From: Rhynchopus sp. YZ270_cl-10
Taxonomy: Eukaryota
NCBI GenBank assembly: GCA_964035575.1
Contig: OZ037847.1
Location: forward strand, 806,001-870,000
DNA length: 64,000 nucleotides
Direction: 5' to 3'
A program made the translations under genes and the position numbers. Shown here piece by piece: positions 1-52,556 of the stretch. The notes beneath the pieces are model-generated. The model had not been told where the DNA came from. It made no database searches and saw only the letters and a program-made list of their open reading frames with translations. Position 1 is the first letter of the stretch, and the number at the start of each line of letters is the position of its first letter.

Positions 1-2445
1 AAAAATGAAATAATCTGCCTGATTCGCGAAGTTACAGGCGAAGTCGAAAAAGAGAAGGATTTTCAACGCGTTTGTTTGATACAGTTGGAGACGAAAACGC
101 ACTTTAACCCCACGAGAAGCTGTGTGTACGTCATTTGGCAGGGACGAGACGGTGATGTTACCTCTCTTCCCGTATGATGGCTGTGCTTTTTTTGTGTTGT
201 GCGTAGCATCAGAGTACAGTACCCCAAAATATGTGTGCCGTCCAAAAGTTACTTTATTGTCTCTTTATTGTTGTTCGTTTTTGTTACGTTGAAGCATCTA
301 CACAAAAAAGTCTTCAAATTACCTCCCCAAATCTGCCAAACTTATTTGGGCGACAATATATTTAGAGCTGTATGCAAAAAAATGCCTCCATTCTGACTAA
401 AAAAAAAAACAAACACAATACAAAATACACATTACCCTCCCCCGTCCCTTCTGTTCAAATCGTGTTGAGGCTGGAGTGACGAGAACTAAGGTGTCGCACT
501 GAACGCTGCAAACAATATGAAACTGTTTTGGGATACGCCAGGCAGGGAGAGATAAGCATTTGTTGGGGGTTTTCCTTTTAAAAGAATGCTTCTTTTTTTT
601 GTTGATAATCCGCGTGGTGTCGGTTTGGTAGTGTGACTGCGGCAGTCTTTCACTATTCAATTCCTTGAGAAAAACCACTGTAGCTTATCCGTATGATATC
701 GCACAGGTTCTGTGACTACTCTCTCTTGAGGTTAGCAAGGCCGGTATCTTGTGGTTGTAAATGCAATTTTAAAAAAAGTAGAGTTGAAATACAAAGCCCC
801 TCTCATGACAATGTACCTTGGTACATGAGGCTGTAGGTGGGGACACCCAACCATGCAGTCCTACATCCATTTCAAATTAAATTTAATTAAAATTACATTC
901 ACATTTCCTGATGCATAACCTGCAGTCCATAAAATATTTAGTAATTTTTTTGTACCTTACTATTACGTTCGCAGTTCGATAAACTAAACAAAAAAAATAA
1001 ATAAACAAACAAAAAAAATAAAACGTATAAGATGAATTGGCCTCGCAAAATGGGAAGGAGAGGGACACATTCGTCTAAAAACAAGAACCTTTTTGCGTAA
1101 CATAAAATATCAAACAAAAACATAAACAAAAAATAAAATAAAATTTCTTACAAAAAAAAGGGGGAGGAAATGGGGGAAGTAATCTCTGATGATGGCGTGA
1201 TATTTTTTTTTTCTCCCTTACTCTTTAAAAAAAAGCAAGGGTAGTGCATTGCTTTGTTTTTTTTTTGATGATGTTTGTCGATTATTACTATATTTTTTTT
1301 TGGTTTTGAACACAGGAAAAAACCACAATGGCTGGATTTGCAAATTTTAGCTGTTACACTACAACATACAAACATTAACCGAAGGTTTTTCTGGAAAAAC
1401 GCAGACCAAAAAAAAAGGAAAAGAAAAAAAGTGGAATTGATGCAACAACAGAACCATCTTCATCTCTCTCTCTCTCTCTTCAAGCACCAACTCCATGGTT
1501 ATCGAATCGGGTAAAAACTTTGCACTTATTGGGTGTACAAAAGAAAATGAGGGTGTGTGTGTGCGGCCTACAGCAGCTAGGGCTGAAGGCAAATAAAAGA
1601 GTAGTTGAAAGGGTGCAAACGCCTCACCGTACACCGGCGGGCGCAAAGCACTAAAAATAAAACATGTCATTTACCATCATCCAGTGTGCAGTTGAAACGA
1701 ATCAGAGTACAGCCGATACATAGATGGTCATGAAGGCGGGGAAGGGGGGGATGGGGAGGAATGCAGGTAGTGAGAAGGGAGGTGGTGGGAGATATCAACA
1801 CGTGATTTGACTGAATTGTTAACGACTGTCAAAAAAAATATTAATGTTTTTTTTGAATAAGATTTTTTCCGTTGAAGAAGAACGTAACAATGAACAAAAA
1901 AAAAAAGTAAAACCAGAAAATGAAAAATCAGAAAATAGAAACATATACAAAACTGATTCTTTCTTGTGTTTTTTTTTTTGACATTGATTATTATTATTAT
2001 TGCTGTTGTATCGACAAACCTAATTAGGCTCTGTAGTAAATGCCGTGTGGGAGGTTGTACTTTAACTACATGGATACATATTAACATAAATCGTCTTCAA
2101 CGAAAAAATAAAGCTTTTTTTTTTGATGATTTTGTTTTTTTTTGATAAAATTGTTGGAATAGTGGATGTTCTTGCCACATTGTGCAAGTCCCCACTCTAT
2201 ATTTTAGTATCGGCAATCACCACGTCAAATGACAGGGTCTAGATAAATAATGTTACCGTTAAAGGGGCACTTCTCATCTATGAACGGCGTGTCAGAGAGA
2301 GATGAGACAAACAGAGAACTCTGGCCCGATTATGAAAAAAAAATTTTTTTTTGAAAACTTGGTTGCATTAGTGTAGACATCCCCTGGGGATGACCTCCAC
2401 TTTTATAATTTTTTTTTTGTTTTTTTTTTTTTTTTGCCTTTTTTT

Positions 2446-3264
2446 CAGGGGAGTTTAAAAGTTTGGATTTTTTTCAAAAAAATCGGTTTGAGGTAAAAAA
2501 TCGGTTTGGGCAAAAAAAAGCGAATTCCGAGCTTTCTCGCCCCCCCACGGGCCTCACCCCCCACCCTTCATCCCTTAACAACTTTTTTCGATTTCTGTTC
2601 CTTTTTAAAAATTTTTCTCAAAGATCTGAACAGAAACGAACAGGCACCCACGAACAGAACGCAACGAACGCATCCAACACAACGCAACCGATCTGAATGC
2701 ATCGAACGGAACCCAAGCAACGCAACGAGTGGTTACAAACCGCAGCCCACCTTCGGTACCCCGCAAGTGCGTTTCCGGCGCCACATACACGGGTCTGGGC
2801 CCAAAAAACCGGGTTTTGGGCTGAAACTCGTGGTTTTCGGTGAAAAACGCCCGTTTTGCCTTAAGGAACGCACGTTTCTAAACACTTTGGTGCCTCTGCG
2901 TGAAATGTCTATTTTTGGTGGACCCCGTATGGGGGGGTGTAGGTACAGGGTGCGTAGCAAAAGCAACCTTAAAAACCTCAACACAGATTGTTAAGGAATT
3001 TTTGAGGGATGGGGTTATCCCTCAGGGCCTCACTTCCCCCTTCCTCTCTCACTCATGTTTGGCTTCTCCGAACTCCGTCCGTCAAATGGTGGGGTCACAT
3101 TATCTGCAAAAACAGGATTTTTCTGGACAGAAACCCTGTTACGAGGAATTTTTTTTTTTCAAAAATCCAGATTTTCCATAGCTTTTTTTTTTTTTTTTTT
3201 CAAAATCCTCAAACCGAATTTTTCGGTTTTTGAAACCGGTAAACCGATATTTTAAACTCCCCTG
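2446..3264. mobile_element. hAT-like non-autonomous DNA transposon (MITE), 819 bp
   Basis: Perfect 15-bp TIRs CAGGGGAGTTTAAAA (2446-2460) / TTTTAAACTCCCCTG (3250-3264); 8-bp direct repeat CTTTTTTT on both sides (2438-2445, 3265-3272; low complexity). CAGGG termini plus an 8-bp TSD are typical of hAT. No transposase ORF. Confidence 0.8.
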
Positions 3265-4892
3265 CTTTTTTTGTTTTTTTGTTGACAATCCCCTGCCGAG
3301 GCAGGTTCTGTACATTTTTTTTTGTTTTTTTTTGGTTGATTTTTTATTATTTTTTTTGAAGTTTTTCGACACATAATCACCACCGTGATGTCTGCGTCTA
3401 TTTTTTGTTTTTTGTGGGACAATCTTTGTTTTTTTGTAGGATGATGTAAGTTTTGGCGGGAAAAAAGGGTGAAAGAAAGAAGTAATGTAGTGACACGGCC
3501 CGCCGTATTCCCCCAGCATATCGTTTGAGTTGTACTTACTGTTCAGGAGTACACGAATCATCAAAATTATTTTTGCACGCTGCTGGATACTAACCATCAA
3601 ATACAATGGCAAATCCTTTGTGAAGAAACGGTTTAAAAAATACACACCTTCAAAAAAAATAAAGGGTTTATAAAGCTTTGGTAAAACGCCTTTATAGATG
3701 AACTTAAGCCTCTCCTGCTTTGTCATCAGAGAAGAATCATTTCATATACTTTATATTCTACTGAATAAAAGGTATAATAGGGACGGTACCCAAAACTTCA
3801 AAGAAAAAACGAGGTGTATATTCACGTTTTCGGTGCAACACATTTTTTTTTGCAGCTGTAAAACAAAATTTATGTCGTGCATACTCGCAGAACACTAAAT
3901 ACGATAAGCAATAACATTACATTATCCGCATCCGTAAATTAACCCTAAAAGAGAGTCAAAATAGAATGAAGACAATCGATAACGTTGCTTGTTTTGTTGT
4001 CATTGTTGATGATGAGCATTTACTTTTTTTTTTGATTATTTTTTTTAAAAATTTAATCCATTGGATTAGCACAACTGCCACAGCAGTTTTTTTACTTTTG
4101 AAGAGAAAAAAAAAAACCCCCCCGTTGGAATAAACACACAAATTACACCAAAAAAAAAAGGTTGGCACCTTTTTTTTTTTTTTTGCAACACCCCCTCCAT
4201 GAGCCTGAAAATCGTAAAATCAATGTCAGCCCAATTTTTTTTTTTTTTTGGAAAAATATTGCATCTCTGTTGCCACCAAAATCATGATGGCAAATCGCAA
4301 TGCAGCAATACCCTAACGGCAGTAGGTTATTGTAGGAGGGGGGTCCTCTGTCCTCCATCATTTGGACTCTCTTTTGAAGTACAATACCCTGTTGTGTTTT
4401 TTTTTTTTCGTTGTGTCGACAATCGCCGAGTCATCCCACCAGGTGGGAGAATTCGGGTCTTTTCAAAAAAACTTGGTTGTATTAGTGTAGCTCTACAAAC
4501 TAAACACTTTTACGGCACCGTATTTTTCTTTTCCTTCCCTCCCCTTAGAAAATTGCTTTGCAGACACACAGGGTGGGAATTGAGTACTTGCTCGTACGGG
4601 TCTGCATGACATTCGACACTGCCCCCGCTCTCACAAACCCCAACTACCTCCATTTTCGGGCAACATAAAATAGCTTTTATGAGGGTGCCTCCTGTTCTAT
4701 TCCTACGATACCTTTAGTGGTCAGGAGTGGGGTCATCAGTGGCAGTGTCCTAAGGGGCGTCATGTGTCAATACTTTTCCAAAAAATAAATTTTGGAAAAT
4801 ATGAGATACACAAAAGAAAAAATGACGTCTCCCCGCACTGCCACCCACCCCTTTGTTCAAACAATGGAGAATTATGGCATTTCAAAGAGCAA

Positions 4893-4958: not shown

Positions 4959-7900
4959 GGGATGCTCGTGGAACAATAATTTGGAAAGCTTTCAAGAACA
5001 AGACTGGAGATGAAAAAACACGAGCAATATTACCTTCTTTTTTTGTTTTTGTTTTTTTTTTTTGGTCTCCTTTCGAATCCGCGAAAGATTGTCCTCCTCA
5101 GCTTCAAAACAAGGTTTGCTTTCCGCCTTTGTTGGCCTTCGCATAGAAGGTCTTTCACTGAAAAGCAAACACTTGCAAGAAGAACATGAAGGACACATTT
5201 GAACGGACCTGCAAGAGAGCACCACGGGAAGCGGGGTGCACGAATAGGGCATCTTATGTTTTCCTTTTTTTATACTATCCGTCATTCGAATGGAACCAAA
5301 AAACGCTGGGAGGGAGGGGAGCATTTCTGCGGAGGGGAGAGAGAGAGAGAGAGAGAGAGGAGGGGGCTGGGAATAGGGTAGTGGGGTCTCTTTGAAAAAC
5401 TGGTTGGAATGAGTTACACCTTTTCATTGTGCGATTTCCATTCTCCATTTAGTCACCCGCCTTACAGGATTGTGGGGGGGAAAAAACCCAACCTTGTCTA
5501 CAAAATTTGGGCTATGAGATACAACTTTTGTTCTCTTTAGTTCAGTGGCAGCGGGACGATACAGTACATCCCCTACCATACGCTACTAACCCGCAATACT
5601 GTTTATATTGCTATAAGCGATGTAGCTGGAATATTCAAACAAGGAGAGGGGAAAAGGGGAGCTGTTCCTAAATACTTTGAAATAAAGGGGGGGGGGTAAA
5701 AAGGGGTGTGTAGGGCGGAATACCTACACAAAATTTGGGCAATGTTCTTTAGGACTACCCCATAACTGCTTTTTTAACACACACACACAAAAAAACACTT
5801 CGTAAAACGAGAGACTGTTCTGGACCTGTTCTTAGATGAGTATGGAAATATTAAAAATAAAAAAAATCTTCGTCAAGATGAGCGCCCGGGGGCACATCTT
5901 TGATGGGGAGGGGGGAATGAAATCAGCTCATCCAGTACAAACACATGACTATTTGAAGTTCAGAAATACAAACTTGCCAAGTCGGTGAAACAATATGTCT
6001 GTAAAGGGTGAACAAAAATGAAAACAAATGTGAGGTCTGCGCTCAGATGCCATCAGACAGAAATATAGGGTGATTAAAACACAGGTATTTGAGAAAAGAA
6101 AATGACACAATATGGTAAATGCGTTTCAGAGTTCAGAGAAACGTCTGTTGAGAGGTGTTGGATGGGAACGCCAAGAGCATACAGACGTAGGCACTGACAA
6201 CAAAATGTAATAAGTGAATGGGCAAGCAAGGGAGCGGATATTCTTGAAGAAGGTGGGGTAAGACGATGGCACAGCTGCTGTGGATAACATATCATTACAG
6301 TTGCAAGGTGCAACTGCAACTCAGCTGTCACATGCATTGTTATCTACAAACAGATATAAAATGAGTGATTTTTTTTACTACTATCAACTTTGAGACCTGC
6401 ATCAGGGCCTTCCCACTTCCTTTTTCTGCTTGTTTTCTTTTGTCATTTGCATAGTGTGTTTTGTGTGACACGCTATGCAGTTTCTTTTCTTGCTTCAGCG
6501 TTTAAATGGGCAAGGATACATGGACAGTTTCGTTATATAAGACAATCAGTAGCCCAATTGCTACAGAGCAGTCATCTTTGATGAGAAGCGTATTTTTTGT
6601 TTCCCCCCCTTATTTTGCCTGCTGAAGACTTTTTTTTTGGGTTTGTCACGTTTTTTTTTTTTTTTTGTACAATCTCCACGTTTCGCTCAACTGGGGCTGC
6701 AAAAACAAAAAGCAAATTGCTGATGCAGAACACCACATTAATAAGCGTCCCCGGAGGCACCAAAAAAGGCAACGCATCCACACGCGTTTTCGTTGTTCTG
6801 TTTTTTTTCTCCCACAAAAATAATTCATCCGTTTTTATACGAAAAACATTAAAGTGATAAAAGGTCTTTAAACACGGTGCGGCGTGAGTTGCTTCGTGGA
6901 CAAGAATAGCAAATGCTTCTCTCACTGGGGGGAAACCTTCAATGACAATGCCATTGACAACGCAGCCTGAACACATTGACTGCTTGGGGGAGGAGGGGGT
7001 GAATTGAACTATGCAAGAAGGCAAGAAGCTAAGGAAAGACCACTTACCATGGAGTTAGGATTCCGTGATGTTTGTGTTGTGAGCAACAAACGTGGTGACA
7101 ATAAAGTCAGAGTTGGGAGAAAATGTTTTGTCATATTGAAAAGTTGTGTAGACACCTACACATTTTAATTTATTTTTCGAGAAAAATAAAGGGGAAGTTC
7201 GCAGTGCAACCGCCTCTAAGGACGCTGACACCAAAAAAAGAAAGTTTAGAGAGACAGAAACGCACCTTGCCGTGGCTAGGTACGCCTGGTCTTTCAAAAA
7301 AAAAAAAAAATGCACGCAAATTAAATTTCTTCAGTGTTTCTTAAATGATGAATTGTTTGGCCGCAATCTCCACGGTATTTAGCATAATACCAATATTGGG
7401 ATCAAGCTGACTTCACTGCTCTCTTTCTGTATAAAAGGATTCAAATCGATGTGCAGATCGTTTTTATTGTTCTGTTGGCAAACCCTCCCTTTGCTGACTG
7501 TTGCGGTCGGCGTTAGGAGAAGAAATACCCCCGCTTATTTCGTATCCAAAGTGATAAAAAAAATATATACAAAATATTGTCAAAATTATCTGCACGCAAA
7601 AAGCTAAAAGAAAGTAAGGAATAATACACCTTTCTGACGAAGGCCACCTCCGCCTCCCCTTACTCCAATTGGAGCAAAATATATGAAAGAGTTCTGTGAT
7701 TTTTTTTTTTTTTTTTGCAGTGTGGTGTTGTTGCAGTGATGTCACCGTGTCGAATTGTAGTCAACGTGCGGGTAAAACGTGGTTCATCGTTTCTTTTTCT
7801 CAGGGTGGTGCTAGCCTGTCTTATTGAAGTAACTATAGACTGGGGCAAAGGGTCTCATTTGAAGATGGGACCCAACGACCTAGATGTAGCTTTGTTTTAG

Positions 7901-10651
7901 GACTGGGCATGCAAAAAAAAAAATATTCAAAATAAAAACAAAACAAGATATAATTCAATAAAAATCAACCGCAGCTATTCACAAAAGGTGAGAGACACGT
8001 TGTTAATTTTTCAAAAAAAAAAAAAAAAAAATCAAAAAAAATTTGGGAAAAGGGCGAAAGGCACACAGGTTTGAACTACAAGCACAGTTCATAACAACCC
8101 CTCTTCATTTCTAAGATTTCCTCTGGGAATACCTTATTGTATAGAGCAGGCAGAAATAGCGTTACCTCTGTCAACTGTGTTGCACCCTCCAACCTTTAAA
8201 AGTAAATAACTTGAAAGAATGGGCCTCACGACCCAGACAAAAAAATATATATACCACATACAAACAATTGGTGCCTCCTCGTGCTGTCTTTGCGTTCACC
8301 GTACTGGTTCCTTAAGGAGGAACACAGATAGGTTAATTGAGAGAGAAAAAGACCCCACATATGTGGGCATAGTGCAGGCATTCTATCGAATGCACGGCAC
8401 TGTCTCTTTGGAGTCCTCCTGCTAGCTGAATCTGTAGTGCAAGTGTCTCCCAAGACACAGCTTGACTAAGATAAAGATAGCAACAAAACCAAATAAAAGA
8501 ACAACAAAAAGAAGCACACTTTGCTCATATTAGAAATGCAAAAATTGGAAATCGGAAAAAAAAAGGAAGAGAAAAAATCAGGCACTCCGCTAGGTACTAA
8601 AGTTCTGTTGATTGTCAACAGAACTTTTTGAAAATGGGGAAAAAAAGAAAAAAAAAAAAGTTCTGCTGAGTGGTTCAGACCCGTTCTACCTGTCAAAAAA
8701 GCTCAGGAGAAGAAGATATGGAGAGGTGAGTGCTCAAACGTCCCAAAAAAGTCAAAATCGGGCGTTGGTAAAAAAAAAGTTGCGTACCGTGCGCCTGCGG
8801 CGCAAGCATGTACCCCACCAACGTGGACCATCAACAGAATATTTTCAAAATCGGAAATCCTAGCGGAGAGCCTGAAAAAAATACCCACAAAAAAAAAAAA
8901 AAGATGAACTGTTGGTATCGCTACTGCAGACATCAGTTTGTAGGCAGAATGCAAAAAATGGGGGGTGTGAATGCAAACCTCGTCAATGAGCGTAGCTAAC
9001 GGGTGCAAACACAATACATATAAAGGCGTTAATAGGGAAACAAAAGGAGGGGAGCAAACACAAACGCTTTCACGCATTGAGCTATTGAACAAAACACACG
9101 AAAAGCAATTAACGTTTCTACATAGAGGGGTACCATGCAGCATTGCGCTGAAGGCTAAGTACCACTCTAGGTACAGGCTGAAGGAGACTTCGGATTGGCT
9201 CACGAAGTCGAATTTGAACGGGTTTAGTGTGTTCAGCAAAGGCAAAAAAAAAAAAAAAAAGTATTTAAAAAAAAAAACAACCATACACAAAGAAACTTGG
9301 CATAAATGAGCGTTGCGTACGCATCCTAAAAAATACGCTACCAGAAAAAGAGATGGAGAAATAGGGGGAAACAAAAAAATAAAAAAAATGGCTACCGTAT
9401 CCCGAGAGAACGACGCTCGCACCGCCGTTTCAGGCAACTGACGTATTTCGGGTGCAATTCTGGCATTTGTGCTACTTCAATCTGCTTCGGCAGGTGGATG
9501 TTGCAACTTTGCCGTGCTCTCATTTCACCTGATCGCGGCTAAAGAACATACTGTACTGTAGCTTAGAAAAGTTCACTCACGACGAAGAGTCGAGATACAA
9601 AAAAGTAACGAATAAAAATGGGGATTGATGTGGGCAAGGCAGTCACGCGTCAAGTGCACAAGAAAGCTCATTTACAACGTTGCTGTCTTGTGCACTGGAA
9701 ATGTAGCTGGCCCTTGAACATTCCATGATTCGTGTTCGGGAGAAAAAAAAAATGGGCATCGGACAGAAAACATATATTACGACAAACAAACTCTGGTTCA
9801 AATAGATATTGGCTCATGTCGTTTGCTTCTGTACGCACAAAAAAATTTTCATACACTTTCTAGGAGAACAGAAAGTCTGAGGGAACACATATCCCCTCTA
9901 AAAAAGCGAAGTTGAGAGTGCAAACGCCTCTGTACGCAGGCACTGACAAAGGAAAAAAAAAACCCCGAAATGGGTTGAAGGGCAATTGAAAAGGGGTTGG
10001 TAGGTGTACCAGAAAATATACAAAAAAGGGGGTTTCGAATGTAAATAGGAACAGCGTAGGGGGTTTCGGAAAATGGGGTGGAAAGGGGTGGGGTGGGGTG
10101 GGGTTGTCCTGTTGAGTGACGAAAAAAAAGAGTTCGGGAAATAAAGTTTAAAAAAAAAAAAAAACAGAAATGGTGATGTTGAAAGTAGAAAAACAATTAT
10201 CTGCGTTAAAAGTTAAAGACAAAAAAAGGGTGAAGTTGAAAAAAAAAAATATGAGGGAAAAAAAAGAGAAGCTGAAAGTGCAAAAAGGGGGAGAAAGACC
10301 ATCTCGTGTGTTCCCCATTACTGAGCGTGCCGCATGACACATACTGTAAGCTTGCATCAAACTGAGCAAAACCTGTCTCTGAACAGCCACACATAACAGT
10401 AATGGTACACCAAAAAAAAGATGCCAAAAAAAAAAGAGAGAAAATCTGAATGTACCTTACAAAAAGTACAGACAAGGGGAGAGGGAAACTTGAAAGATCA
10501 ATGGGCACCATACATCTTTTTTAAATGAGATTACTACCAAAACAAAACAAAATGAAATTTTTAGTTTTCCACCTCAGCAGGAGGCGGACATGAATGGGAC
10601 AAAAAAAAAAAAAATATGCAAAAAAGACCCCCCTTTAGATTTTTAAGTTAT

Positions 10652-11266: not shown

Positions 11267-13985
11267 TGTGAAGAGAAAAAGGTAAAGGAGAAAAAAGAGA
11301 AGAAGGAACGAAGACGAGGTTCGAGCGGCTTCCGGTTCGCGAGAAGAAGAAGAAGGGGGGCAAACTAAAAGGCAGGAAGCACAAAAAGAATGTGGTATAA
11401 TAATAACCTGCGTGACATTGCACCACCCCCCAGCCCCGTTCCCCTCCCCTCATCCCTACCCATCCCCACACCCTCCTCAGGACCCATACGGTGAACTGAT
11501 TGCAGATCAGGGTTCGCGAATCCATGGTCTGCTCAGATTCATGACTCACAACAAAGTTGAAAGTGCAAACACATCACCATATTCTCCGCCGATTATCGAA
11601 CCCCAGAAAGCACTTCATTGTCCACAACACCTTCAAAAAGGTGGTGTTTGAGTCATCATCAATCTTAAGAAAACCCTAAGAAATGATAGTTGACACACAC
11701 CAATGAACGATGCAGGCACAAAAGAAAATGTTTACTACGACCAACACCAGAAGAGTCTAAAACAACCCCTCTTCGACCGGTCAGTGGTGACCCCATCCCA
11801 TGCAAACCCCTCCCCTCCCCTCTTCCACATATCGCTCGCCTCTCCTGCCTCACTACCGATGCCGTACTCACTTCAAAGCGTTTTCTGAAAAACAGGATTA
11901 TGCTCACTCACCCCAAATAGACTGAGGGAATGCAACCACGGGAGAGCCGAACGCCGTGCACAACATGATGTCATTGCAGTTCGGTTTAAACCCCCCTTTT
12001 TTTCACCCCTCCCAAAAGAAGCTGTTTCGGGTTCAAACGAACTCTCATCTCAGACTCACTCCTCACACCCCCCCTTCGTGCAATCCAGATATCCAGCAGA
12101 ATTTATTCAAAAAAAAGAATTCTTTGATAAAATTCGCGAGGATTTCTCGGCACGAAACCGCTCCCTAAACATTTTTATCCCTCTACGTACATAGCCCGAC
12201 ATATACAATACAGCGTTGAACTCACAGAAGCAGATCCGATTCACATCCCTACAGCGTGAACTGCAGCTTTTGGACGAGAACGGCTCTTTCAAAGAAACCG
12301 AGAGATGGGAATGGGGCATGGTGCACACACAATTCTCATCTTCTTGCGTTTCAAGAACCATCTGTAAAGACACACTGCACCCACCTCCTTCTGCGACACC
12401 CAAAACGCAAAGACCAACTCACCCTATCCCTCCCCCCTCCCCCTCCCACACCTCTCCCTCTCTGTCTACATGATCGATTCTCAGATATTCACACCACCTC
12501 ATGAACAAACGCCAACGTCACCATAACTGAGGGGTGTCTTTCATATTATCAACAAGGTCTATCAGCATGGACCCCATAACCACCTCCCAACCACATCCCC
12601 TTTACTTCTCATGCAGGGCAAAAAAGGTACACCGAGAAAAGACCCCAAAAAAAAACGGAACTCAAACACACCCCCTTTTTGCAGTCTCGATCCATCTGAA
12701 CACCCTAAGCCCAACCCCCTCCATCTCCCCTATCACCTCACAAAGAGAGCTGTCTCTTAGGCAGCCTAGATAGAAGGTCCCATCCTGACGAATGCAACAA
12801 GTCTATGAAGGGGTGCAGACAGCCTTTTGCGATAACAGCTTTGGTATGAGAGCAATAACCATAACACAATCCGCCACTGCACACGGTTTTCGAGGCATCC
12901 AAACCATGATACATTCCACTATCATTCAAAATACCCATTCCCCGCACAGCACTCCGCTCCGCTTCCACGAATCATACCTCATTAACGTACAACGGTCAGT
13001 ATTAGTGCTTTCTCTCTCTCTTTCTAACCGCCTTTCAAAAACCCAACTCAATCCGCTTTTGTTGTCAAAGAAAACAGCATCCCAGAACCCTCCCTTCCCA
13101 ACCCAATAAAACTCCGATGAAAAGAGAACGAAACCGCTTTTGGAAGACAAAAGCCAACGCCATCCTTTGAGCACAAATCGGCATCGTACAAAACAGCATT
13201 GTGCACCATACAGACAAAGCAACCATGCAAACAGCCATGAGAGAGGTTCGCTACCCTCTTGACCAATGGTGAGCACCACACACCACTAGCAGAGAGTGGG
13301 AAGCTCTCTTACTACAACCCTTTCCCCCCCCATTTCCCCCCTCCTCCTCCTCCTCCTCTCCAGATTGTAGCGGCAACCTCTGCATAGTATAACTGCTGGA
13401 TGGACAAAATCATTGCCCCAGATTGAATCCTGAAAACCCTAGGATTTTGTGTCCGAGGAATGACAATGAAATGCCAGTGGGTGTGTGCGAATAGTGTGTC
13501 TCAGTGGTACAGGACGATCTCAGAAAGAACATCTACCATGAAGCAACACAGATTTCAGAAGACACGCCGTTTCTCTATGCAACACCCATCAAAGTTTAGT
13601 ACACACAAAACCCGTTGCAACCCCCTCCCCTACCCTCAGGTGAAAACACCGCCACATTTCTGCCATATTGACAAGAAATCTGCTAGGGAGGAGAGAAAAA
13701 AAAGACAAGGATCTATCATAGAACTATGTCATTATTTTTCTTCCAGGGAATCCCCCCCCCACCCCGACAAGGCAATCAACACCAGAACGTCGCACAGAAG
13801 GAATTAGAACCACATCCCCCTTTTTTCTTTAAAAAAAGATTTTTAAAAAAAACGTTATAACTACTCATGGGGGGCATAACAGATACAATACAAATTGCCC
13901 CCCTTTGTTCTTTCTTTCGTCTTTCGTCCTCCTTCTCCTCCTCCACCGCCGCCGCCGCCACACCCAAATTTGGCCGAAAAGACCG

Positions 13986-15376: not shown

Positions 15377-16579
15377 TTACTTGCCCTCAGCCTTCATCTG
15401 CTGGATCATCGAGGTGAGCTCGGCAATCTTCGCCTCCAGGGCAGCAACGGACGCAGCGCTCTTGGTCTGGTGGTTCTGCGAGAGGGTTGGTGGTTGGTGG
15501 GTGGTGAGTAGTGGGAACAGCCGAACACATTAAAAAGTTTTTGTTTGATTATAGACTACTATCACTAGATAATAGCCACGGTTTTTCTTCACAGGATCCT
15601 TAAAAGAGCAAATAGAAGGACAAGGCCGAACACATTAAAAAGAGAAATATAAAAGTTTATAAGATGACCCTAAGCCTCTCGGTGTTTAGTCACCTTGTGT
15701 GGAATTTAAAGGCGTAGCAACCGAAAGGGGAAGGGGAAGGGGAGAAGTGAAGAGATGTTGAAAGTGCAAACGCCTCGCCGTTCATAGGCGGAGGCAGGCA
15801 TTGGTTCCGTGGGTTAGAATGATGGTTTGTAAAAAAGGGTCATTAATAACACCACCTCAATGGAGGTAGCTGACATAAAAATAAATTCGTTTGTAAGAGA
15901 AAGCATAGATTGGAAGACAAATGCAGTTCTACGCAGAGGTGGACCGCGGCAGAAAAGAAAAGGAAGGGAAAAGTATTCCTAAAAGGGGAGTAGCAAACCT
16001 CCATCTGGTTCCTGGTCTTGGCGTGCTCCTCCTCGTACTTCGCGTTCAGTGCGTCAGCGTGCTTCTGGAGGAGTGCCTGCTGCTTTGCGTATGCGTACTT
16101 CTCCTCTCTGGTCATCTTGTTGTCAGCCTCCATCCAGGACAGGTCGTCAGAGTGGTTGTCCTATGACATAGTGATATAATGTTGTGGGTGTTTAAAAAAA
16201 AAAAATACAATCCGCCTTCCGAGATATGGTCCATCCCCCTTTATTGGTAATACAGAAAATATTTGGATGAAGCAGTCTGATTAGATTACTTAATATTTTG
16301 AGCATTGGTTATTCATCAATCCTTTTTGTTGTATTTTTGGATCCTTTTTGTTTTGTTTTTGTTTTTGTAAATATGGATGAAACAGTCACCTTTAAAATGG
16401 GCGTAAGGCAATCTTAAAGATGAGCTGTTTTGGTGCGAAAAAAGGGAGGTAAACATCTGTCTGGTTGCGCCCCCATATTCTCTTCCTATCTGCGTGGTAT
16501 TGCATACCTGGTGGGTTCCCATGCGCTTACCAGCCTGAAGGGTGCTTCTGCTGACGAAGGTGGCGGCTCTCCTCATCAT
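15377..16579 (-). CDS. IF1: Mitochondrial F1Fo-ATPase inhibitor IF1-like protein, 3 exons (16508-16579, 15999-16160, 15377-15475), 110 aa
   Basis: Two phase-0 GT-AG introns join MMRRAATFVSRS... (presequence-like) + DNHSDDLSWMEADNKMTREEKYAYAKQQALLQK... + coiled-coil NHQTKSAASVAALEAKIAELTSMIQQMKAEGK*. The LxWxxADxxMTxEExYAxxKQ segment resembles euglenozoan IF1 (recalled, not searched). Confidence 0.8.
15543..15580 (-). other. Stem-loop family E (representative copy)
   Basis: Plus-strand consensus GTTTGATT(n)GACTACTAT-loop-ATAGC; copies at 15543, 17014, 19825 and a partial copy at about 6365. On the minus strand GCUAUU pairs with GAUAGU, using G:U. Confidence 0.6.
15661..15696 (-). other. Stem-loop family B (representative copy, IF1 intron 2)
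   Basis: Minus-strand consensus AAGGUGA-CUAAGC-loop-GCUUAG-(2-nt bulge)-UCAUCUU. Copies at about 3696, 15661, 17136, 17739, 20691, 23873, 24084, 25140, 26993, 27239 and 27638, plus remnants. Confidence 0.8.
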
Positions 16580-17340
16580 TTTAAAGGTAGTTTAAAGAGT
16601 TGTGTGGGGAAAATTCTGTAAAAAAGAATGGTTGTGGAGGAATGACAGTGTAGAAGAGGGGAGTGGGGAAAGCTGGGAGAATCCCATTACACATGGAAAA
16701 CACATTAATATTATATCAATGCGTGACTCACAGCAAAATCGAGAGCGGAAGAGGGATCGATAAATCATCATGTCAAAAATAAAATTTAAAAAAATATGGG
16801 GAGAGAGGAGAGACGCAAACTTTATCCGATAGGGCAAAAAAAAAACTCATGCCACTACACCCATACCTAATACACGAGATTTTTCTTTTAAAAAAAAATC
16901 GTTCCTTTTTTTTTCTTTATTTCCCTTTCCTTCTTCCCTCTTTTCTCAGGGGTTGACACATCTTGAACTCCGTGGTGGAATGGTTGGTTGAAAGGGAAAA
17001 AAATAAGCGATTCGTTTGATTTTCGACTACTATCACAGAATAGCAGGCACGATTTAAGCGACCACAAAAAAAAAAAAAAAAAACAAACAAAGGGGGGAGA
17101 GGAGGAGGAGGAGGAGGGGTTTTTTTTGTAAGTTTATGATAAGCTACGCAGTGTTTAGTCACCTAAATCCCCCTCGTGGTGCCTATCCTAGCTTTTTTCC
17201 TTTTAACTCGGTTCATGTTTTGATTTCCTTTTCTTTGACGAAATACTGCGCAAGGGCAGGGTGGAAAGCAAAAAAGCGATGAAAGAGAGGGAAGAAAAAA
17301 AGTGGAGCATTCTCGATAAGGGTGTCACTGATTTCACTAC

Positions 17341-17487: not shown

Positions 17488-18111
17488 ACTACGTTTTTTT
17501 ATCTTGCTGTCACAAGACATTACTTTTCCATATCAAAACAACCAAAGAGAGAAAAAAAGAGCATTGAAATCGGCAAAAACACGCACTGTAACACCTTCTG
17601 ATAACGCAGAAAAAGGAAAGAGAAAAACTTAATGATAACCAGAAAAGCCTCTCTGTGGTTTGTTACCTAAAATATATGAAATAGAAAAGGCACAAAAAAG
17701 AGCAGGGCCCAAGGAAAAACGTAAAAAAAAAGTTTTGTAAGATAAACCTAAGCCTTTCGCACTTAGCCACCAAAACAAAAGGAGAGGAAGAGAGAAAAGG
17801 AGAGGATAGCTGGGCTGCACCATTGTGCGGATAACCGAGCGTATATTTGCTTTCCCGTTGATATCGTCAAGTCGCCCCCCGCCCTGCCCCGTCCCCCCCA
17901 CCAGGTATGTTATATACTTAAAGGTACATGGTGATACTAATTTTTGCTTTTTTTGTAATTTTAAAATGATATTGTGGAAATAAGACCCCTTTTTTTGAAT
18001 CGTTGAATCCCGAGAGAGGAAGACTAATTCAAAATACTAGGGAGAAAGGAAGAAACGGAGAGAAACGGAAGAAGAGGAAGAAGAGGAGGAGGAAGGAAAA
18101 AACAAAGAGAA

Positions 18112-21690: not shown

Positions 21691-21725
<35 letters not shown>

Positions 21726-35750: not shown

Positions 35751-36857
35751 TATCTCCACATAGGCAAACAGATGAACCAAAAAAGTAGGTTTTTTTGTTG
35801 TGTGGACAATCGCCTAAGAACCCGTTTGGGAACCTAGGGTCTGTACTCAACGTTGGCTGAAACCTTTGTACTACGGAACGTATAGACGTCAGTTGTCCTG
35901 AACCCTTGAAAGCAACTTTTATGGAAAGCCCTTTTACTAGGCTACATTTCTCTTTCTTTTTGGGGAGGGGGGGAAACAAAGTTGGCTTGAAATACAACAG
36001 CCCTCTCGCGACAGTGCCTAACAAAAAAGCGAATAGGGGATATGGTATCTCTAATTCACTTTTTGACCTGCCTTTTCTTTTTTTTCAGGTTTTGTTTTTT
36101 GCATACTGTGAAATAGGAGATATGGTACCTCTTATTCCAGGCTAAAAGCCCAAATATCACCCTAATTTCCTATTCGCCCCTTATCTCTTAGCACCCCCGC
36201 CCTCTCCCCCAGTAAAAATAGAAACAGACGGGATATGACAATTGAATAAAAAGAGAGCAAAGAAAAATAATTTTTTCCGTTTATCGCGGTTTGAAAGAGG
36301 GGCTGTAGGGAGGAAAGGGGAAAGGAATGCGTTAGGGTCTTGGTTTTTGTATAGGTCACAAAGGGGTCTGTCAGCCCACAGCTATAGGAGAGGCTCTTCG
36401 GCACGTACACACCTTCCGCACATTGGGAGGTGTGCGGGCTGTAACCCCACGAAGAAACGGGAAACTGTCCCCCCACTGCCTTGTGCAGTGTGGAACCCCA
36501 CTACATAGAACAACCCGAACACATAGCAAAGAGGCAGTGCCAGCGGTGCAGCTGCCTAACAGTTAGCGTTACAGTAAAAAAAGGAGGGGTCAAAAGATTG
36601 AATGGGTGACAGCTGCACACCGCAAGAGGGGGTGGCGAGAGTTGCACACTGATGGCACAGAGGGTTGAAAGGTTTAAAAATAGAATCTGACAAAAAGAGA
36701 GCAAAGAGAAACAACTGTTTCCGTCGCTAATGTGTCGTGATTTTCGCTGTATGGTGCGGTGAAACAAATACTGAACGAAAGATAATTTGCAGGCACCTTC
36801 CGTCAATTCTAATTCTTCTTGCCAATGATTGGTACATTAAAAAAAAATGTTGGGGAT

Positions 36858-39986: not shown

Positions 39987-40819
39987 ATTCTGAATGGACC
40001 TTGCGGAGCGGTGTCCAAAAAAATAAGAAAATTGAAGCAAAAATAGTGCGAGTGTGAGAGGAGATGGGGAAAAAAGGGGGGTAGGTAGTCATTCGTATTT
40101 CATTCAAGTTGAGCAAAGTAAAGATTCTTGGACCTCAAAAGGAGAGAGGGGGTGCAAGACATCTTTAAGATTGGAGAGGGAGAGAGTACGCAAAGAGAGA
40201 GAAAAAAGAGAGAGAGAGAAAGTTGGGGAAATGATGGGAGTTCGTTTCTGAACCCTTTTTGTTTCACTCCATTTTAACTAAAATCAATGTTTTCGCAGCG
40301 TTTTTTTTTCTTTGCCGTTTGGCATTTTTTTTTCCCTCCCCGTCTTGTTCTTGTTTTTGGGGAGAACGCTGTCCTCTCATTTTTAAGAAAGCCATTGACA
40401 CGGACGGTTGCACAGTGATACACCATACACCGGTAACTGTTTGGAGACTCTTTCTCTCTCACACAGCACACGTGAGGCACGAAGTTCGGTTTGGTTCTTT
40501 GTTCTTTTTTTTCAGTTTGTGAAACAGTTCTGGAATAGTGTAGGTGCCAGTTTTGCTTCCGTTGTTTTATCTGTTTTTTACATTTAACTTTGAATAATCG
40601 ACAACATGAAGACCAAGTCCACGCAGTGTCCTAGACAAAATAGCATCGTTTAAAAAAAAAAATGTGGAATACAGAAATGCTTCTGCATATGTTCATTATT
40701 TCGTCCATGGATCTTCTCTTTCGCCTGCTGTATACTCTGCTTGCCTTCGTTCCCGTTTTGAAGCTTGCAGGCGTGCAGGCGTACAGGTCCTGCACGTACG
40801 AAGTTCTCATTTATGGCTA

Positions 40820-44610: not shown

Positions 44611-45314
44611 AGCATACAAAATCGCATGGGGTTGTGGAAAGGGGATGCAAAACGTGGATACTATTTGGTGAAAAGAGTGTAGGGAGGAGGGGAAGGGGAA
44701 GAGGAAGAGGGAGGAATGGCAAAAGTATTAGTTAGTATTGTGTCGGGAGAAGTGGGTTGCTTGAGTTGTTTGGGTTGTGTATTGCCCGTTGGAAAAGGGG
44801 CGCAAAAAGAAAACTTGAAAGATGAATGTGCCTCTCATGCACATACCAAAAAAAGATAAAAAAATTAGACAAAAAAATAAAGAAAGAAAGACAGGGTCGA
44901 ACACATCAGATGAACGTATATCCCCACATACACACTTTTGTCCACAAATGCGGTGAACAGCCTTAACATAAAAGGAAAGAGGAGTTGTGCCGTGCAGGTT
45001 ACTTTCTTTTTTTTCCAAAAATAAAATAACAAGATTACGAACACATTTCGTCTCGGAAAGACGTTGTAAGGTTTCTGTGGGTCCCAATGGCCCCAGAGAG
45101 ATGAGGCCTTTTTCCTGAGAGTAAACCCTGGTGGAGACTTGCTTGCGTGGCAGCGCGCACTACGCCAAGAAATAACAGATTATCAATAAAGAGAGAAAAA
45201 AACACAGAAAATAAGGAAAATCCTTCAGTCCACAGAAAAAAGCTTGACTTAAAATACAAAGCCCTATTGTGACAGATGCCAGTGAAAATATAAAAATGCT
45301 GAAGTATTAGCACA

Positions 45315-47186
45315 CTACTTGCTAGGCCGAAGGGGCTCTATGTTCTTCTTCTTCAGAAGCTCTTTGCTGTACTTCTCTGGCACAGCCGATGCCTTCAGTT
45401 CATGAATCTTGCGCTGTATTATTATTTTCTTTTTTTTCTTTTGCGTTTTGATAAAAAAAGAACATACGTTGCGGATGGACTCGATCTTCATTTCTTGGTC
45501 TTTGCGCTGCGATTTGAGGGAGTTGCCCTCTTCCAGGAAGCCACGACGGTCCTTCTTCCTGGCCTCCTCCATGAGCTCGATCTGGTCCCGCAGGTCCTCA
45601 GCGTTCTTGAGGCGGCGGCTCGCTTCGAGTTGCTTCTTCGACTTCTCCTGCTGGTCCCATTGTCTCTGCACAGCGATGATCCTCTCAAAGTCTTCGTTCT
45701 CCTGCCTCGCCTGCTCTGCAAGGGTGACTTCCTTCTCAAGCTTCTGGCTTTGCCTGGCCAAAGCAAGGTCAGAGTTGATCGCAGTGACACGCGCAGCTGC
45801 CTCCTTCTCCTTCGCACGGTGTTCTCTCTCAGCTGCCTCTTGAGCACGGCGTGCGCGCAGGGCATCGAGCTCTGCCTGCTTGTCTTGGGCCTTCTCCTGC
45901 AGCGAACGGAGACGGGCAATTTCACGTTCCTTCTCAGCCTTGACACGTTCATTCTCTTCGGCGATAGCTTGCTCGCGTGTGTCTTTCTCCTTGAGGTATT
46001 CCGAGATCCTCCGGTCTTCGGACTGTATGTGGGTAGAGTGGTAGTAAGGAGTGTGCTGTGCTCTATACCTGTTCGACCTCTCGCTGTCTGTTCTTGAGGC
46101 GGATCTGCTCAGCATTGGCCAAGGCCACGTCCTCCATGAGACGTTTTGCTGCCTCCTTCTTCTTGAGTGCCTCCTGCTTGTCGTCGTCACGCATGCGTTC
46201 GATGTGACGCAGCATCGCTTCCTGTGGATGGGTTGAGAACGTCGAGTGAGGTAATGTTGATCCATTCGTAGTAAGGTTCATTGATGATAAAGTGCGAAAT
46301 TATTGTGAAAAGTTGTGAAAAGTTGTGAAACCGCCCCAAGTGTAGCACCAAAATAGGAACATAAGGGAAATGGGAAAACACACACCTGTTCCTGTTGCTT
46401 GAGCTCAAGGCGCCGCAGGCTTTCCTGAACACGTTCCTCAATCTGAGCCCGGATGACAGCAGCACCCTTCCGTCTGTTCTCAATGCGCTTCTGCTCCCTT
46501 TCGTCGTACATCTTGAGTGCCTTGAGCCGCTCCATCTCCATTGCCATGTCCAGGCGCGCTTCCTCCTCTGCACGCTCAGAGGAGATAGACTGCTTCTCCT
46601 TTATTTGCGCATCACGGATAGTCACACACTTTGTGTACAACATAATCTGTTTTAGTTTAGAAAAGATAAGGCGCGACGCGTGTTTGGCAGACAAGAAAGA
46701 GAAATTGAAAGTACAAACGTCTCACCGTGCATCGGTGGGCGGGCAATAAAGAGAAGTTGGAAATAAGAAAACAAAACTGTGGGTCCAGAATGGGGTGGGA
46801 AGCAAGGTTACCTTATTCATGTACTTCACCTCGTCAAGCTCCTCGTCCATCTGCAGCTGCGCTTTCGAGAGACTCTCGTGTTTGGTGACTTCCTCCTCTG
46901 CGTCTTCAGGGGACTTAGTGCTGCCCTTGGCACGTCGCTCCTCGTCGTGTGCAATGATCTTGGCCTTCCTTTCGTTGGCAATGCTCATGAGACGTGCCTT
47001 CTCGTCTGCAGAGGTTGTTGTGCGGAGTTTGTCTCGGTCGTTCTGCTCCATGATGTTCTTCCACTGCATGAGCTCGCTTGCAGTCACGACCACTGTGCTG
47101 TCTGCAGGTGCTCCATACACATCTATCACTTTCTTCTTCAACTGCCCTTCACTCACCACCGGGCGTGACCGCCTGTTCGCACTCAT
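45315..47186 (-). CDS. CFAP45: Cilia- and flagella-associated protein 45 (CCDC19/FAP45), 5 exons (46812-47186, 46386-46646, 46069-46221, 45468-46022, 45315-45413), 480 aa
   Basis: Four phase-0 GT-AG introns (165, 164, 46 and 54 nt) give a continuous protein with EELDEVKYMNKIMLYTKCVTIRDAQIKEK, RLDMAMEMER, EKEREIARLRSLQEKAQDKQAELDALRARRAQE and VPEKY, typical of CFAP45. Confidence 0.93.
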
Positions 47187-49886: not shown

Positions 49887-51992
49887 TCACGGATCAGAGA
49901 TGTCAAATATGGAGTTCATCGCCAGGAAAAAGAACAACAGACCTGTGGGTTTTTTTTTGTAATTGATAAGACACAGACCTACGTCAAGTAGGTTGCATTA
50001 CTGTACTAACCCGGAACTGTGGTATTGTTGAAATGTGTACATTGTTTCAGACACCACGTCCAAGGTGCGGTCTTTTAGCCGGATAACAGCGGGATAGCAG
50101 CGGGATAATAGCAATTTTTGAGCGACTTAAATTTTGGCCGGAAGCCGAAACTTTGAAATTTAGGAGTGGATAATAGGTCCACCCCCCTTTATAGGGGGGT
50201 TTTTACCTGTGCTTGAACTACAGTGGTACCAGGATTGGTTTATACATGTCCAACCTAAACATACCTGCAACGAAGTGCTGTTTCAATGCAGTTCTGTTAC
50301 GAAGCAGTAATGTGCTATGCGATATCACACAAGCGATAGAAGTGCAGTACAACTGAGGAAAATGATTAAGATAGTATTTTCAATCGAAAGATGGAGTTTT
50401 GACCACCAGCGTCTGAGGATAATGAAAAATAAAGGTCGGTAAGATGATATCAAGCCTCGTCAGGATTGTCACCATTAAATAATGAATGAGAAGCCACGCT
50501 GCCACGGCAGCCCAAAGTCATGAGGAAAAAACATAACTTTTCCTCTATCTCCGGTTGTATACCTGGGCAATCAGAGCACCGTGCATGACTGCATGGAACT
50601 CTACAGTGCATGTCAATGCAATGATACCAATCTGGGACGACCCACCCCATTCCGCAACCAGCACTGTCATAAACGACTGGTACACACTCAAAGGACCATC
50701 AGCAGCTCCTGCATCCTCTTCCTGTGCATTTATCAATGTTGTGGTGATTGCTATTGTCAGAGATATTTCCGTATGTGGTAATGTATTTTGGGAACTGTGG
50801 GACACCTGGTGTTTTCCCCCCCTGGTACCCGTGTTAAGTGCAGTGACAGCAAAATTTGCCTCCTGTTCACACATCCCCAATATCGCCATACCGTCTGCTT
50901 TTCTTCGCAGTCAATGTAAGCCATGAGATATTCCTCTCGCCGGTCCTCCTGCTCCCTTCCAGCCACACTGTAACTCTTGTGCACCTGCACCAACCCAGCA
51001 AGAGTGCAAGCGATGGCAGCAAACACTTTGTAGATGACTGGAACAAACAGGTTTGAGTCGGGAAGTATATGACCCAACAGCGCAGAGACCCCTGCAATAA
51101 AAAACTGTGCTGCTAATGCTCCAATAAAGATGGAAGTGGTAGCCCTGGGGTGGATCGAGCACAGAACGCTTGCTGTGCAGAACGCATAGTTCCCCATTCC
51201 AGTCGCAATCACAACAACTGTCGCAACAATGACAGATTCGGGAACCCCACATTTGATCACTGGTTGTGCTGGAGCGACAGCGCCCGCCTCAACAACGACA
51301 GATGTGGCGGCCGCCTTCTCAGTAAGCTTAAAGACTTGATTCGCAAAGGGCCCCCCGCACATTGCAGCCTCGTCTCCTGCACATGGCTTCGTACATTTAG
51401 TGCTCTCGCCATAAGTTTTCCCGACATCGCTACCACAAAAACACTGGTTACTATCTTGAAGAGCCATGTACGGTTTGGCTTGCTTCTGACAATGCTCTGC
51501 ACACATCATGTAGGTCATAGAGCTGTCCTCGAAGAGTGAATCCTTGTCAAACGCTCGCCCGGGGCTTTTGTCTTTGAAGCAGCCGATGGCGGTCCATGAT
51601 ACTTGGTCAGCCTTTACAACTCCTTCGCGGGTGTCTGTGGCACTCGCGGTGGTGGAGTAGACTGCGAGCTCTCGAGCACCCCCACATTTTCCCTTGTTGT
51701 CGGGGGTGGCCCCGTTGTGGCACGTCTTGTCGCAGTTGTTACTGTTTCCGTGTTTCCCGTACGAATCCCCGCACCAGCATTCCGTCCCCGCCTTCAACCC
51801 GAAGTACTTGTAAGGCCCGCTCGCCATCACACCGCAATGTGTCTCACAGAACTTCAAACTCATCCCATCGGGTAGGACCTTGGTTTCTGCGATAAACTCT
51901 GGGTCCGCCGAATCATCGAAATAGCATCCCACAAAAACACTCTCAGCATACGCATACGAAACAACGGCAGCAAGAACAGCCACACATTTCAT
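49887..51992 (-). CDS. WSC-WSC-GDT1/UPF0016-like membrane protein, 4 exons (50892-51992, 50563-50721, 50265-50352, 49887-49942), 467 aa
   Basis: Signal peptide; two WSC domains (VGCYFD...C...C...YFGL..G.ECWCG; IGCFKD...QCFCG...CAGD...CGG). Three GT-AG introns extend the frame through FMTVLVAEWGGSSQIGIIAL, QLYCTSIACV and AGLLFFFLAMNSIF*, collinear with the GDT1/TMEM165 fold. Confidence 0.8.
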
Positions 51993-52556
51993 ATCTGTCT
52001 TCTGCTGTGCAAAGCGTGGGGGTAAAAGGGTGGTTGAGTGAACAAAAATGAACAGGGCTGTTTACATATGGTGCACCTCAAGCCCCAACAAGGTGTAAAA
52101 ATCTGTACGTTCTGATTGAATAGAGATTGCTCATCCGCAGTCGCAACAAGCGACACACAAGAGGGTTGGGATCATGGACGAGATGGGTGGGTCAGCAGAA
52201 TTGGAATACTGGAGTAGATCTGAGTAAAAAGTGGAGTAGGGGGCAGGAGGGTGTTTTGTCGTGTCGTTGGGTGGGGTGGGGAAGCGATCCGGCAAGAGGA
52301 AGAATTCCGGTACGCTGTTGTATTGTTTTGTTTTGAAAACTTGGTAGTATTAGTGTAGACACCCGAGAATGAACTCCACTATACAAAACGCTTTGTTTTG
52401 TCTTGTTTTTTTTGTTGTCGCAACTTTGTTCGTTCTCTAGTACATTATGGTGTTGCTTTTGTTGTCCTCGTGTGAACCTCCAGGGTGGTTCATTTATAAG
52501 AACACTTTTGTGACTGGGAATACACCGGACCACGAAACACCCGACAAGCGAGGTGT

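Follow-up and report, generated by a model that had tools for sequence, protein, structure and literature searches.

Stringent long interspersed element (LINE) proteins are reported to bind their cognate 3' stem-loops (PMC4176376), and in the tail hairpin of UnaL2 a bulge and a U-U mismatch must be present for retrotransposition to occur (PMC1636434). Among euglenozoan elements, sense copies of L1Tc are about ten times commoner than antisense copies and about half of them are without a target-site duplication (TSD) (PMC5814959), and SIDERs, described as domesticated post-transcriptional elements, have a polarity of about 4:1 (PMC2689281). For the diplonemid Diplonema papillatum, the genome description reports unidirectional gene clusters, trans-splicing, long 3' untranslated regions (UTRs), about 2,500 retroelement-like open reading frames (ORFs) or gene models, and a full RNA interference (RNAi) set (PMC10161547). 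Introns in the examined Diplonemidae are reported as mostly GT-AG (PMC12621601). Here, a 64,000-nucleotide (nt) stretch of DNA (contig OZ037847.1, positions 806,001 to 870,000; the window) was analyzed for five unrelated families of short hairpin repeats, A to E, which occupy the non-coding parts of a gene cluster. These families are, with moderate probability, tail-only, promoter-less, non-autonomous retroposons that were likely mobilised by LINE reverse transcriptases.

Five hairpin families on the mRNA-sense strand

Profiles were built from hand-picked seeds and run with nhmmer over positions 1-54,000 at a threshold of at least 8 bits. They gave 42 matches (A 12, B 13, C 5, D 9, and E 3; 30 seeds and 12 new copies), every one of them on the minus (mRNA-sense) strand; the plus strand had none, and scores in 20 local dinucleotide shuffles peaked at 8.9 bits. 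Covariance models (CMs), used with E up to 5, matched the minus strand in 14 of 14 cases for A, 12 of 12 for D, and 17 of 18 for B, the sole plus-strand B match (E 1.4) being the same B hairpin read in reverse. One-strand words were already visible in a de novo word count. Co-orientation across families was judged by the conserved unpaired tail 3' of the hairpin on the minus strand (all five families) and by G:U bias (four families). Two other repeats, one of them the interior of a miniature inverted-repeat transposable element (MITE), are present in both orientations within the window, and on this small control one-way polarity is therefore no general property of the repeats there. A first-pass annotation had proposed five unrelated hairpin families in one shared orientation; the matches bear this out, and of the random orientation that it had raised as a counter-sign there is no trace locally.

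A curated list of 59 copies (A 18, B 18, C 9, D 11, and E 3; Table 1) combines the profile matches with divergent copies picked by eye. The unit length is 35-70 nt in all five families. None of the 59 copies overlaps a called coding sequence (CDS) piece (P = 1.5e-12), these pieces making up 37% of the span 1-52,400, and the annotation was right in this respect as well. Four of the five regions have 1.4-3.4 copies per kb of non-coding DNA and the fifth has 0.4; one 11-kb gene-free stretch holds 30 copies, and one 519-nt intron hosts three families. Copies are found, as had been described, in introns (A, B, and E in the second intron of an IF1-like gene, and A in a CFAP45 intron) and just downstream of stop codons (A 27562, B 27633, and A 34249).

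The gene at 40823-42100 on the minus strand encodes a coenzyme A (CoA)-transferase that shares 70% identity with a EukProt protein carrying the label Rhum and 63% with D. papillatum, and these identities therefore indicate that the window is diplonemid nuclear DNA. The minus strand carries every ORF called as a gene (10.6 to 52 kb), and sense pre-mRNA would therefore contain the elements, in agreement with the diplonemid, polycistronic setting assumed at the outset. Gene models and introns were reconstructed from sequence alone, and a TPH domain was detected in the CFAP45 gene. Hidden micro-exon genes were considered for the two long gene-free stretches and rejected: codon scores, and Pfam searches for two candidate frames, gave no convincing exons in 1-10.6 kb or 16.6-27.7 kb.

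The hairpins are irregular in ways that differ by family: A has a pyrimidine internal loop and a bulged A, B has 3' bulges, C has GA steps, and D has a G.A mismatch. The C units consist of a conserved 3' arm with unrelated apical stems and an A-rich tail, and the D units of a basal stem with the G.A mismatch and a long tail closing in an A-run; the apical stems of C and D have sequences unrelated between copies, yet they are still paired. G:U and A:C pairs in the stems were scored alike on the minus-strand reading. The stems of A, B, C, and E have 71 G:U against 15 A:C pairs, compared with 238:156 in background stems (Fisher P = 6e-5), and structure on the mRNA strand is supported for these four families. 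In D the bias is reversed (3 G:U vs 11 A:C, P = 0.005), with 7 of the 11 A:C pairs coming from two copies with an internal duplication. The proposed restriction of G:U pairs to the minus strand thus holds in four families and fails in D. A single variant at 3% or more is listed for A; located at 18127, it converts a minus-strand G-C pair to G:U, whereas no mirror CpG change is listed. This is one site only.

Modest covariation was obtained for B (score 0.240 vs 0.169 in shuffles, reached by 2 of 500) and D (7 double changes vs 2.2, reached by 0 of 500), and that of A was not significant (138 of 500 shuffles); these shuffle controls ignore the relatedness of copies, and the structures were set by the analyst. 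Scored as ungapped pairing of the consensus arms, in which several copies are mis-anchored by indels, double compensation was not significant (A, P = 0.15; B, P = 0.22; D, P = 0.26). The covariation that the annotation wished to see is accordingly present, if modestly, in B and D and not in A. In the seven long A copies, divergence from the consensus is 0.25 in the 5' stem arm and 0.23 in the loop, and in B and D the loops are more variable (0.37 and 0.41) than the stems (0.19-0.29); since 3' motifs served to find the copies, the apparent conservation of the 3' arm is biased upwards. To describe the stems as conserved and the loops as freely varying is therefore an overstatement.

Dispersal and marks of insertion

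Contigs of public DNA runs matching the stretch were placed at 80% identity, and four runs were placed on 18090-18800. There, a depth of 64-191 gives way to 0.76-2.9 million across A and to 1.2-4.4 million across D, and the edges are sharp in each of the four runs. In run X1, the summed contig depth was 762,000 for A, 1,375,000 for D, and about 106 for single-copy sequence. Summed contig depth does not equal copy number; division by the single-copy depth was used as an upper bound and a further division by 31 as a lower bound, which gives 230-7,200 copies of A and 420-13,000 of D. In the same run, 2,749 of the 3,589 placed contigs were 90-99% alike and 827 were junctions into other flanks, with at least 183 distinct right-flank contigs at two places at the 5' edge of A 18109. 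For B 15657, 69 and 56 contigs had a common 3' edge at 15651 (placement on 14900-28400), and the depth at E 15544 was 68,000-79,000 at 15572. Loci of A and D elsewhere number in the hundreds; most are 90-99% alike, and their ends are sharp. B and E have raised depth. Exact patterns were also scanned for in other contigs, where they are little informative on relatives: the A seed had 5 matches in viral contigs, all of them the seed alone without the hairpin and read as chance, metagenome contigs gave 0 for A and 1 chance match in a bacterial CDS for D, and prokaryote genome contigs gave 0 and 0.

The flank consensus elsewhere agrees with the window, A lying in U-runs and D in A-runs (sense strand). 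Joints at other loci test orientation over a short range only; the kind of joint is given for 15 of the 18 listed, and none of them switches strand. Among 15 listed of 455, 8 connect one family or family-like segment to a different one without a change of strand. D is upstream of A (sense strand) in 11 of 11 A-D joints listed; tract order was tried as the cause and ruled out (30 vs 34), and the D-A joints may stem from a few composite subfamilies. The possibility that the five families are fragments of one long element, which the annotation itself had raised, was rejected, as their order in the window varies (B>A 3, A>B 3, D>C 3, and C>D 2).

The copy A 18731 is located inside a MITE, most copies of which read straight over 18721-18785, leaving an empty site. 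The empty-site joints (18717-18720 to 18786) had a depth of 2,434 in X1 and 456 + 818 in X3, and the depth of the MITE falls from about 118,000 at 18703 to about 770 at 18720-18723. Around 7 MITE copies contain A, whose apex differs among them. Flanking direct repeats were above the 95th percentile of cross-copy pairs in 8 of 59 copies (P = 0.009) and above that of random sites in 10 of 59 (P = 6e-4). Exact flanking repeats of at least 7 nt, for which the offsets were chosen after the first flanking-repeat test, were found in 12 of 59 copies, against 9.4% of cross-copy pairs (P = 0.008) and 1.6% of random sites (P = 1.6e-10). The clearest cases are E 17015 and A 11553 (7 nt each), B 23869 (10 nt), and B 25138 (11 nt). 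In these, 0-4 nt separate the tail from the repeat on that side and 3-13 nt separate the other repeat from the hairpin, an arrangement that would be expected of target-primed reverse transcription beginning at a fixed 3' end.

The 3' flanks are 61% A in C and 65% A in D, compared with 27% in the background; the E tail is A-rich, and A and B are U-rich with U-run ends. The same type of tract is found on both sides of a copy (flanks in the window; loose-end consensus at other loci). To say that poly-A tails and consistent TSDs are lacking was an overstatement, given the A-rich flanks of C and D, the U-rich flanks of A and B, and the enrichment of direct repeats, though most copies have none.

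Table 1. Curated copies of the five hairpin families, and the MITE-like element that carries one of them
Feature	Position	Strand	Evidence and remarks
A long form	18109..18158	-	basal stem, pyrimidine internal loop, bulged A, tail UUUCAACUUCUCUUU; hidden Markov model (HMM) 49.9 bits + CM
A long form, intron 2 of IF1-like gene	15754..15803	-	nhmmer + CM
A long form, 8-nt flanking direct repeat	1601..1651	-	nhmmer + CM
A long form, CFAP45 intron, 54 nt before 3' splice site	46701..46745	-	nhmmer + CM
A long form, after stop codon	27562..27613	-	nhmmer + CM
A long form	24807..24857	-	nhmmer + CM
A long form	20826..20871	-	nhmmer + CM
A short apex	9908..9941	-	nhmmer + CM
A inside MITE	18731..18782	-	nhmmer + CM; segment 18721-18785 missing from most copies of MITE
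A extended apex, 7-nt flanking direct repeat 11547-11553/11623-11629	11553..11614	-	nhmmer + CM
A after stop codon	34249..34294	-	nhmmer + CM
A divergent	7195..7231	-	fuzzy seed, CM E 1.6; weak
A divergent	22654..22692	-	fuzzy seed + fold; picked by eye
A divergent	25210..25251	-	fuzzy seed + fold; picked by eye
Short A-like variant	782..816	-	picked by eye
Short A-like variant	26786..26820	-	picked by eye
Short A-like variant	35984..36016	-	picked by eye
Short A-like variant, after CFAP45 stop	45246..45281	-	picked by eye
B, intron 2 of IF1-like gene	15657..15693	-	3'-bulged stem, tail UUAYAAACUUUU; nhmmer + CM
B	3692..3726	-	nhmmer + CM
B, 11-nt flanking direct repeat 25128-25138/25181-25191	25138..25172	-	nhmmer + CM
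B after stop codon	27633..27669	-	nhmmer + CM
B	27235..27273	-	nhmmer + CM
B	17126..17162	-	nhmmer + CM
B	17632..17667	-	nhmmer + CM
B	26990..27024	-	nhmmer + CM
B	17735..17770	-	nhmmer + CM
B, 10-nt flanking direct repeat 23858-23867/23917-23926	23869..23903	-	nhmmer + CM
B	24080..24114	-	nhmmer + CM
B, apex deleted	20688..20718	-	nhmmer
B adjoining TA-flanked inverted-repeat element 25950-26283	26283..26311	-	nhmmer
B	24898..24930	-	CM seed + fold
B	50438..50473	-	fuzzy seed; CM seed
B divergent	44816..44846	-	CM seed
B divergent	44904..44937	-	CM seed, E 0.057
B divergent	21256..21287	-	CM seed, E 0.11
C directly upstream of D	20282..20334	-	nhmmer
C	35797..35846	-	nhmmer
C	4411..4458	-	nhmmer
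C	22889..22934	-	nhmmer; joined to A, B, D at other loci
C, 13-15-nt low-complexity flanking direct repeat	3279..3312	-	nhmmer
C divergent	6538..6574	-	picked by eye; seed missed by nhmmer
C divergent	3364..3398	-	picked by eye
C divergent	2006..2037	-	picked by eye
C divergent, directly upstream of D	2206..2238	-	fuzzy seed
D	20231..20276	-	nhmmer + CM + covariation; G.A mismatch in basal stem, covarying apical base
D	52336..52380	-	nhmmer + CM
D young high-copy form, internal duplication	18235..18296	-	nhmmer + CM; depth 1.2-4.4 million vs 64-191
D young high-copy form, 86% to 18235	19511..19569	-	nhmmer + CM; depth 1.4-2.4 million
D, 11-nt flanking direct repeat	2354..2400	-	nhmmer + CM
D	4469..4506	-	nhmmer + CM
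D	21586..21633	-	nhmmer + CM
D	19452..19489	-	nhmmer + CM
D, degenerate stem	40521..40564	-	nhmmer + CM
D	2143..2195	-	CM seed + fold
D divergent	603..654	-	picked by eye; seed missed by nhmmer
E, intron 2 of IF1-like gene, 65 nt before 3' splice site	15544..15579	-	nhmmer
E, 7-nt flanking direct repeat 17004-17010/17055-17061	17015..17051	-	nhmmer
E	19825..19866	-	nhmmer
MITE-like host of A 18731	18630..19098	.	16-nt terminal inverted repeat; 8-nt flanking repeat, one mismatch

Further high-depth repeats are located at 16255-16345, 22255-22450, 23020-23085, 24545-24640, and 26335-26410, with depths of about 760-43,000 at listed places and a bin mean of 40,000 for 16253-16703. The first of them, in intron 1 of the IF1-like gene, resembles family E, the last has a tail hexamer in common with A, and the repeat at 23020 recurs reversed at 36462-36496. 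The families may number more than five. Five MITE-like elements with terminal inverted repeats were recorded (2446-3264, 17341-17487, 18630-19098, 25950-26283, and 35559-35752), two having 8-nt flanking repeats and CAGGGG ends (hAT-like) and one having TA flanks; the interior of 18630-19098 recurs reversed at 53760-53816. The element 25950-26283 may have split B 26283, a weak case in which excising the element adds only 1.3 bits. 

Elsewhere in the window, 58908-64000 is a perfect 229-bp tandem array (22.2 copies, 100% identity), either a satellite or an assembly-collapsed repeat. The region 54780-56760 is a large inverted duplication with degenerate pentamer-rich arrays, looks subtelomeric or DNA-transposon-derived, and has related sequence inside the MITE-like element 2446-3264. 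The intergenic segment 35360-35520 is duplicated at 36290-36680, the second copy having an extra stretch of about 215 nt. A 538-amino-acid ORF at 27754-29367 has a signal-peptide-like start and a transmembrane-like segment, with no Pfam match at E 0.01.

Retroposition weighed against other explanations

The discrete ends, the near-identical loci of A and D, the empty site, the enriched direct repeats, and the tails together shift the reading to mobile DNA. For tail-only retroposons, constitutive polycistronic transcription would supply the element RNA, with no promoter needed. The bulged stem would be recognised and bound by the protein of a partner LINE, with target-primed reverse transcription starting at the tail in A- or T-tracts; the resulting copies would be fixed at the 3' end, variable at the 5' end, and accompanied by short duplications. 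Selection on source copies would maintain the structure, and the one-way orientation would result from strand-biased insertion and/or loss of antisense copies (a matter of double-stranded RNA in a cell equipped for RNAi).

Several observations weigh against retroposition. No partner LINE was found, the ORFs scanned in the window including no reverse transcriptase. The polarity is absolute in the window (42 of 42), stronger than that of SIDERs or L1Tc (about 4:1 and about 10:1). The unrelated yet paired apical stems of C and D need either many source lineages or host selection, the D-before-A order in the 11 listed joints is unexplained by tract order, and the release of a 40-70-nt RNA from pre-mRNA has no explanation in the model. 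A 18731 was inserted into the MITE without clear duplication, and the A-bearing MITE copies represent either one event amplified or a recurrent site. Exact flanking repeats of at least 8 nt were not significant (7 of 59 vs 6.7% of cross-copy pairs, P = 0.096), 47 of the 59 copies are without an exact repeat of at least 7 nt, and many of the repeats are of low complexity.

It is possible, if rather doubtful, that the hairpins are instead host cis-elements, perhaps with domesticated mobile ancestors, to which proteins would bind and thereby tune stability, splicing, or polyadenylation, per-copy selection keeping structure and orientation. The absolute polarity, the G:U bias of four families on the mRNA strand, the covariation in B and D, the single variant at 18127, and the ordered neighbours at other loci are all in favour of such a role, and the long 3' UTRs of D. 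papillatum have been proposed as protein platforms (PMC10161547). The near-identical copies, the empty site, and the flanking repeats point rather to recent copying, the covariation of A is not significant, and its 5' stem arm decays like the loop. The positions of the copies speak against this role as well: 12 of the 21 gaps between called CDS pieces (8 intergenic ones, in which trans-splicing and polyadenylation must take place, and 4 of 6 introns) have no copy, where a length-proportional model expects 10.1 empty gaps, and the next start or 3' splice site lies anywhere between 54 nt and more than 8 kb from a copy. Because more than half of the gaps are empty and the count follows length, an obligatory trans-splicing or polyadenylation signal is unsupported. 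The annotation had read the hairpins as RNA-processing elements and had suggested a comparison with intron length and processing sites; the sense-strand structure survives in four families, and the obligatory signal does not, the copies tracking gap length with no fixed distance to processing sites. Host function is compatible with a retroposon origin via domestication. In an unlikely version of this combination, minimal sense-only retroposons, each a LINE-binding stem-loop with its tail, would by now be domesticated as an ordered combinatorial hairpin code tuning pre-mRNA processing or stability.

Single-stranded-DNA units of a REP-like or Helitron-like kind, with an HUH enzyme reading the lagging-strand or non-template-strand hairpin and so producing one-way orientation, fit less well than retroposons and are quite improbable. 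G:T and G:A pairs are tolerated in DNA hairpins too, and in a window with genes on one strand only, gene direction and replication direction are inseparable. The MITE insertion without clear duplication would agree with such units, and Helitron-like ORFs are reported from D. papillatum (PMC10161547). By inspection only, TC...CTRR ends are not consistent in the flanks and no tetranucleotide is fixed next to the hairpins, and the homopolymer tails fit RNA priming better. HUH transposition is not known to make flanking duplications, and the enriched flanking repeats weigh against it.

The Rfam search proposed in the annotation was run with E up to 5 and gave 14 weak matches in the window, none at an element and none to a ribozyme family, and ARAGORN found 0 tRNA genes in the window. 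Small-RNA precursors or retro-copies (small nucleolar RNA (snoRNA)-like or intron-derived) trimmed from pre-mRNA also fit less well than retroposons and are very improbable: the ends are defined, and the 519-nt intron with three families and the 11-kb gene-free stretch with its 30 copies are like snoRNA host regions, but the lack of Rfam matches at the elements and of tRNA genes, the lack of consistent C/D or AGA/ACA boxes or guide pockets in the alignments, and hundreds to thousands of near-identical copies, atypical for guide RNAs, speak against them.

If the families are tail-only retroposons, they would be among the smallest described, and a genome transcribed end to end could host promoter-free elements needing only a reverse-transcriptase handle. 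At the densities given above, nearly every long pre-mRNA of this abundant marine lineage would carry copies. The repeats are candidates for cis-elements in the long 3' UTRs of diplonemids, which would parallel the domestication of SIDERs in Leishmania, and they would allow two causes for the transcription-wise orientation of euglenozoan repeats, insertion bias and purging of antisense copies, to be tested directly against each other.

Comparison with known element classes

No description of such hairpin repeats was found in the literature, including two diplonemid genome papers searched by term, although the repeat supplement of PMC10161547 may hold one. As in short interspersed elements (SINEs), the units are short, non-coding, and dispersed (0 of 59 in CDS, hundreds of loci for A and D, and raised depth for B and E); an RNA polymerase III head (tRNA, 5S, or 7SL) was not seen, with 0 tRNA genes, no Rfam match, and units that end at the hairpin base. 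The described SINE/LINE pairs (UnaL2/UnaSINE and ZfL2; PMC1636434, PMC4176376) resemble them in having a bulged or mismatched stem-loop with a short conserved 3' tail. Several hairpin families would then match several partner LINEs. The diplonemid units differ in having no head or body, only hairpin and tail, and in their strict one-way orientation.

SIDER1/SIDER2 (PMC2689281) and L1Tc/NARTc (PMC5814959), as described, are likewise euglenozoan, located in non-coding parts of directional clusters, sense-biased, and often without a TSD. The diplonemid units differ from SIDERs in being structured, in forming five unrelated families with young high-copy subfamilies, and in occurring also in cis-introns. 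SIDERs are roughly ten times longer than these 35-70-nt units, in which Rfam gave no HDV-like ribozyme and no 79-nt ingi signature was seen, though no search aimed at that signature was made. The R2 SIDEs of Drosophila are reported as non-autonomous, released from a host co-transcript, and comprising little beyond the LINE 3' end, with their own 5' ribozyme and one ribosomal DNA site (PMC3414825), whereas the diplonemid units have no recognisable ribozyme and lie in A- or T-tracts genome-wide.

A MITE would not have a conserved tail beyond the hairpin on one side only, nor the fixed orientation seen here, and for Helitrons, by inspection only, the flanks have no consistent ends and duplications are enriched. 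Bacterial REP/BIME elements are short intergenic hairpins in mixed order that are sometimes strand-polarised; the diplonemid units differ in being eukaryotic, with one-sided tails, homopolymer flanks, and duplications, and no tetranucleotide tag or RAYT was seen. The repeats thus resemble SINE 3' tails, depart from SINE heads, SIDERs, MITEs, and Helitrons, and are filed as non-autonomous retroposons outside the named families.

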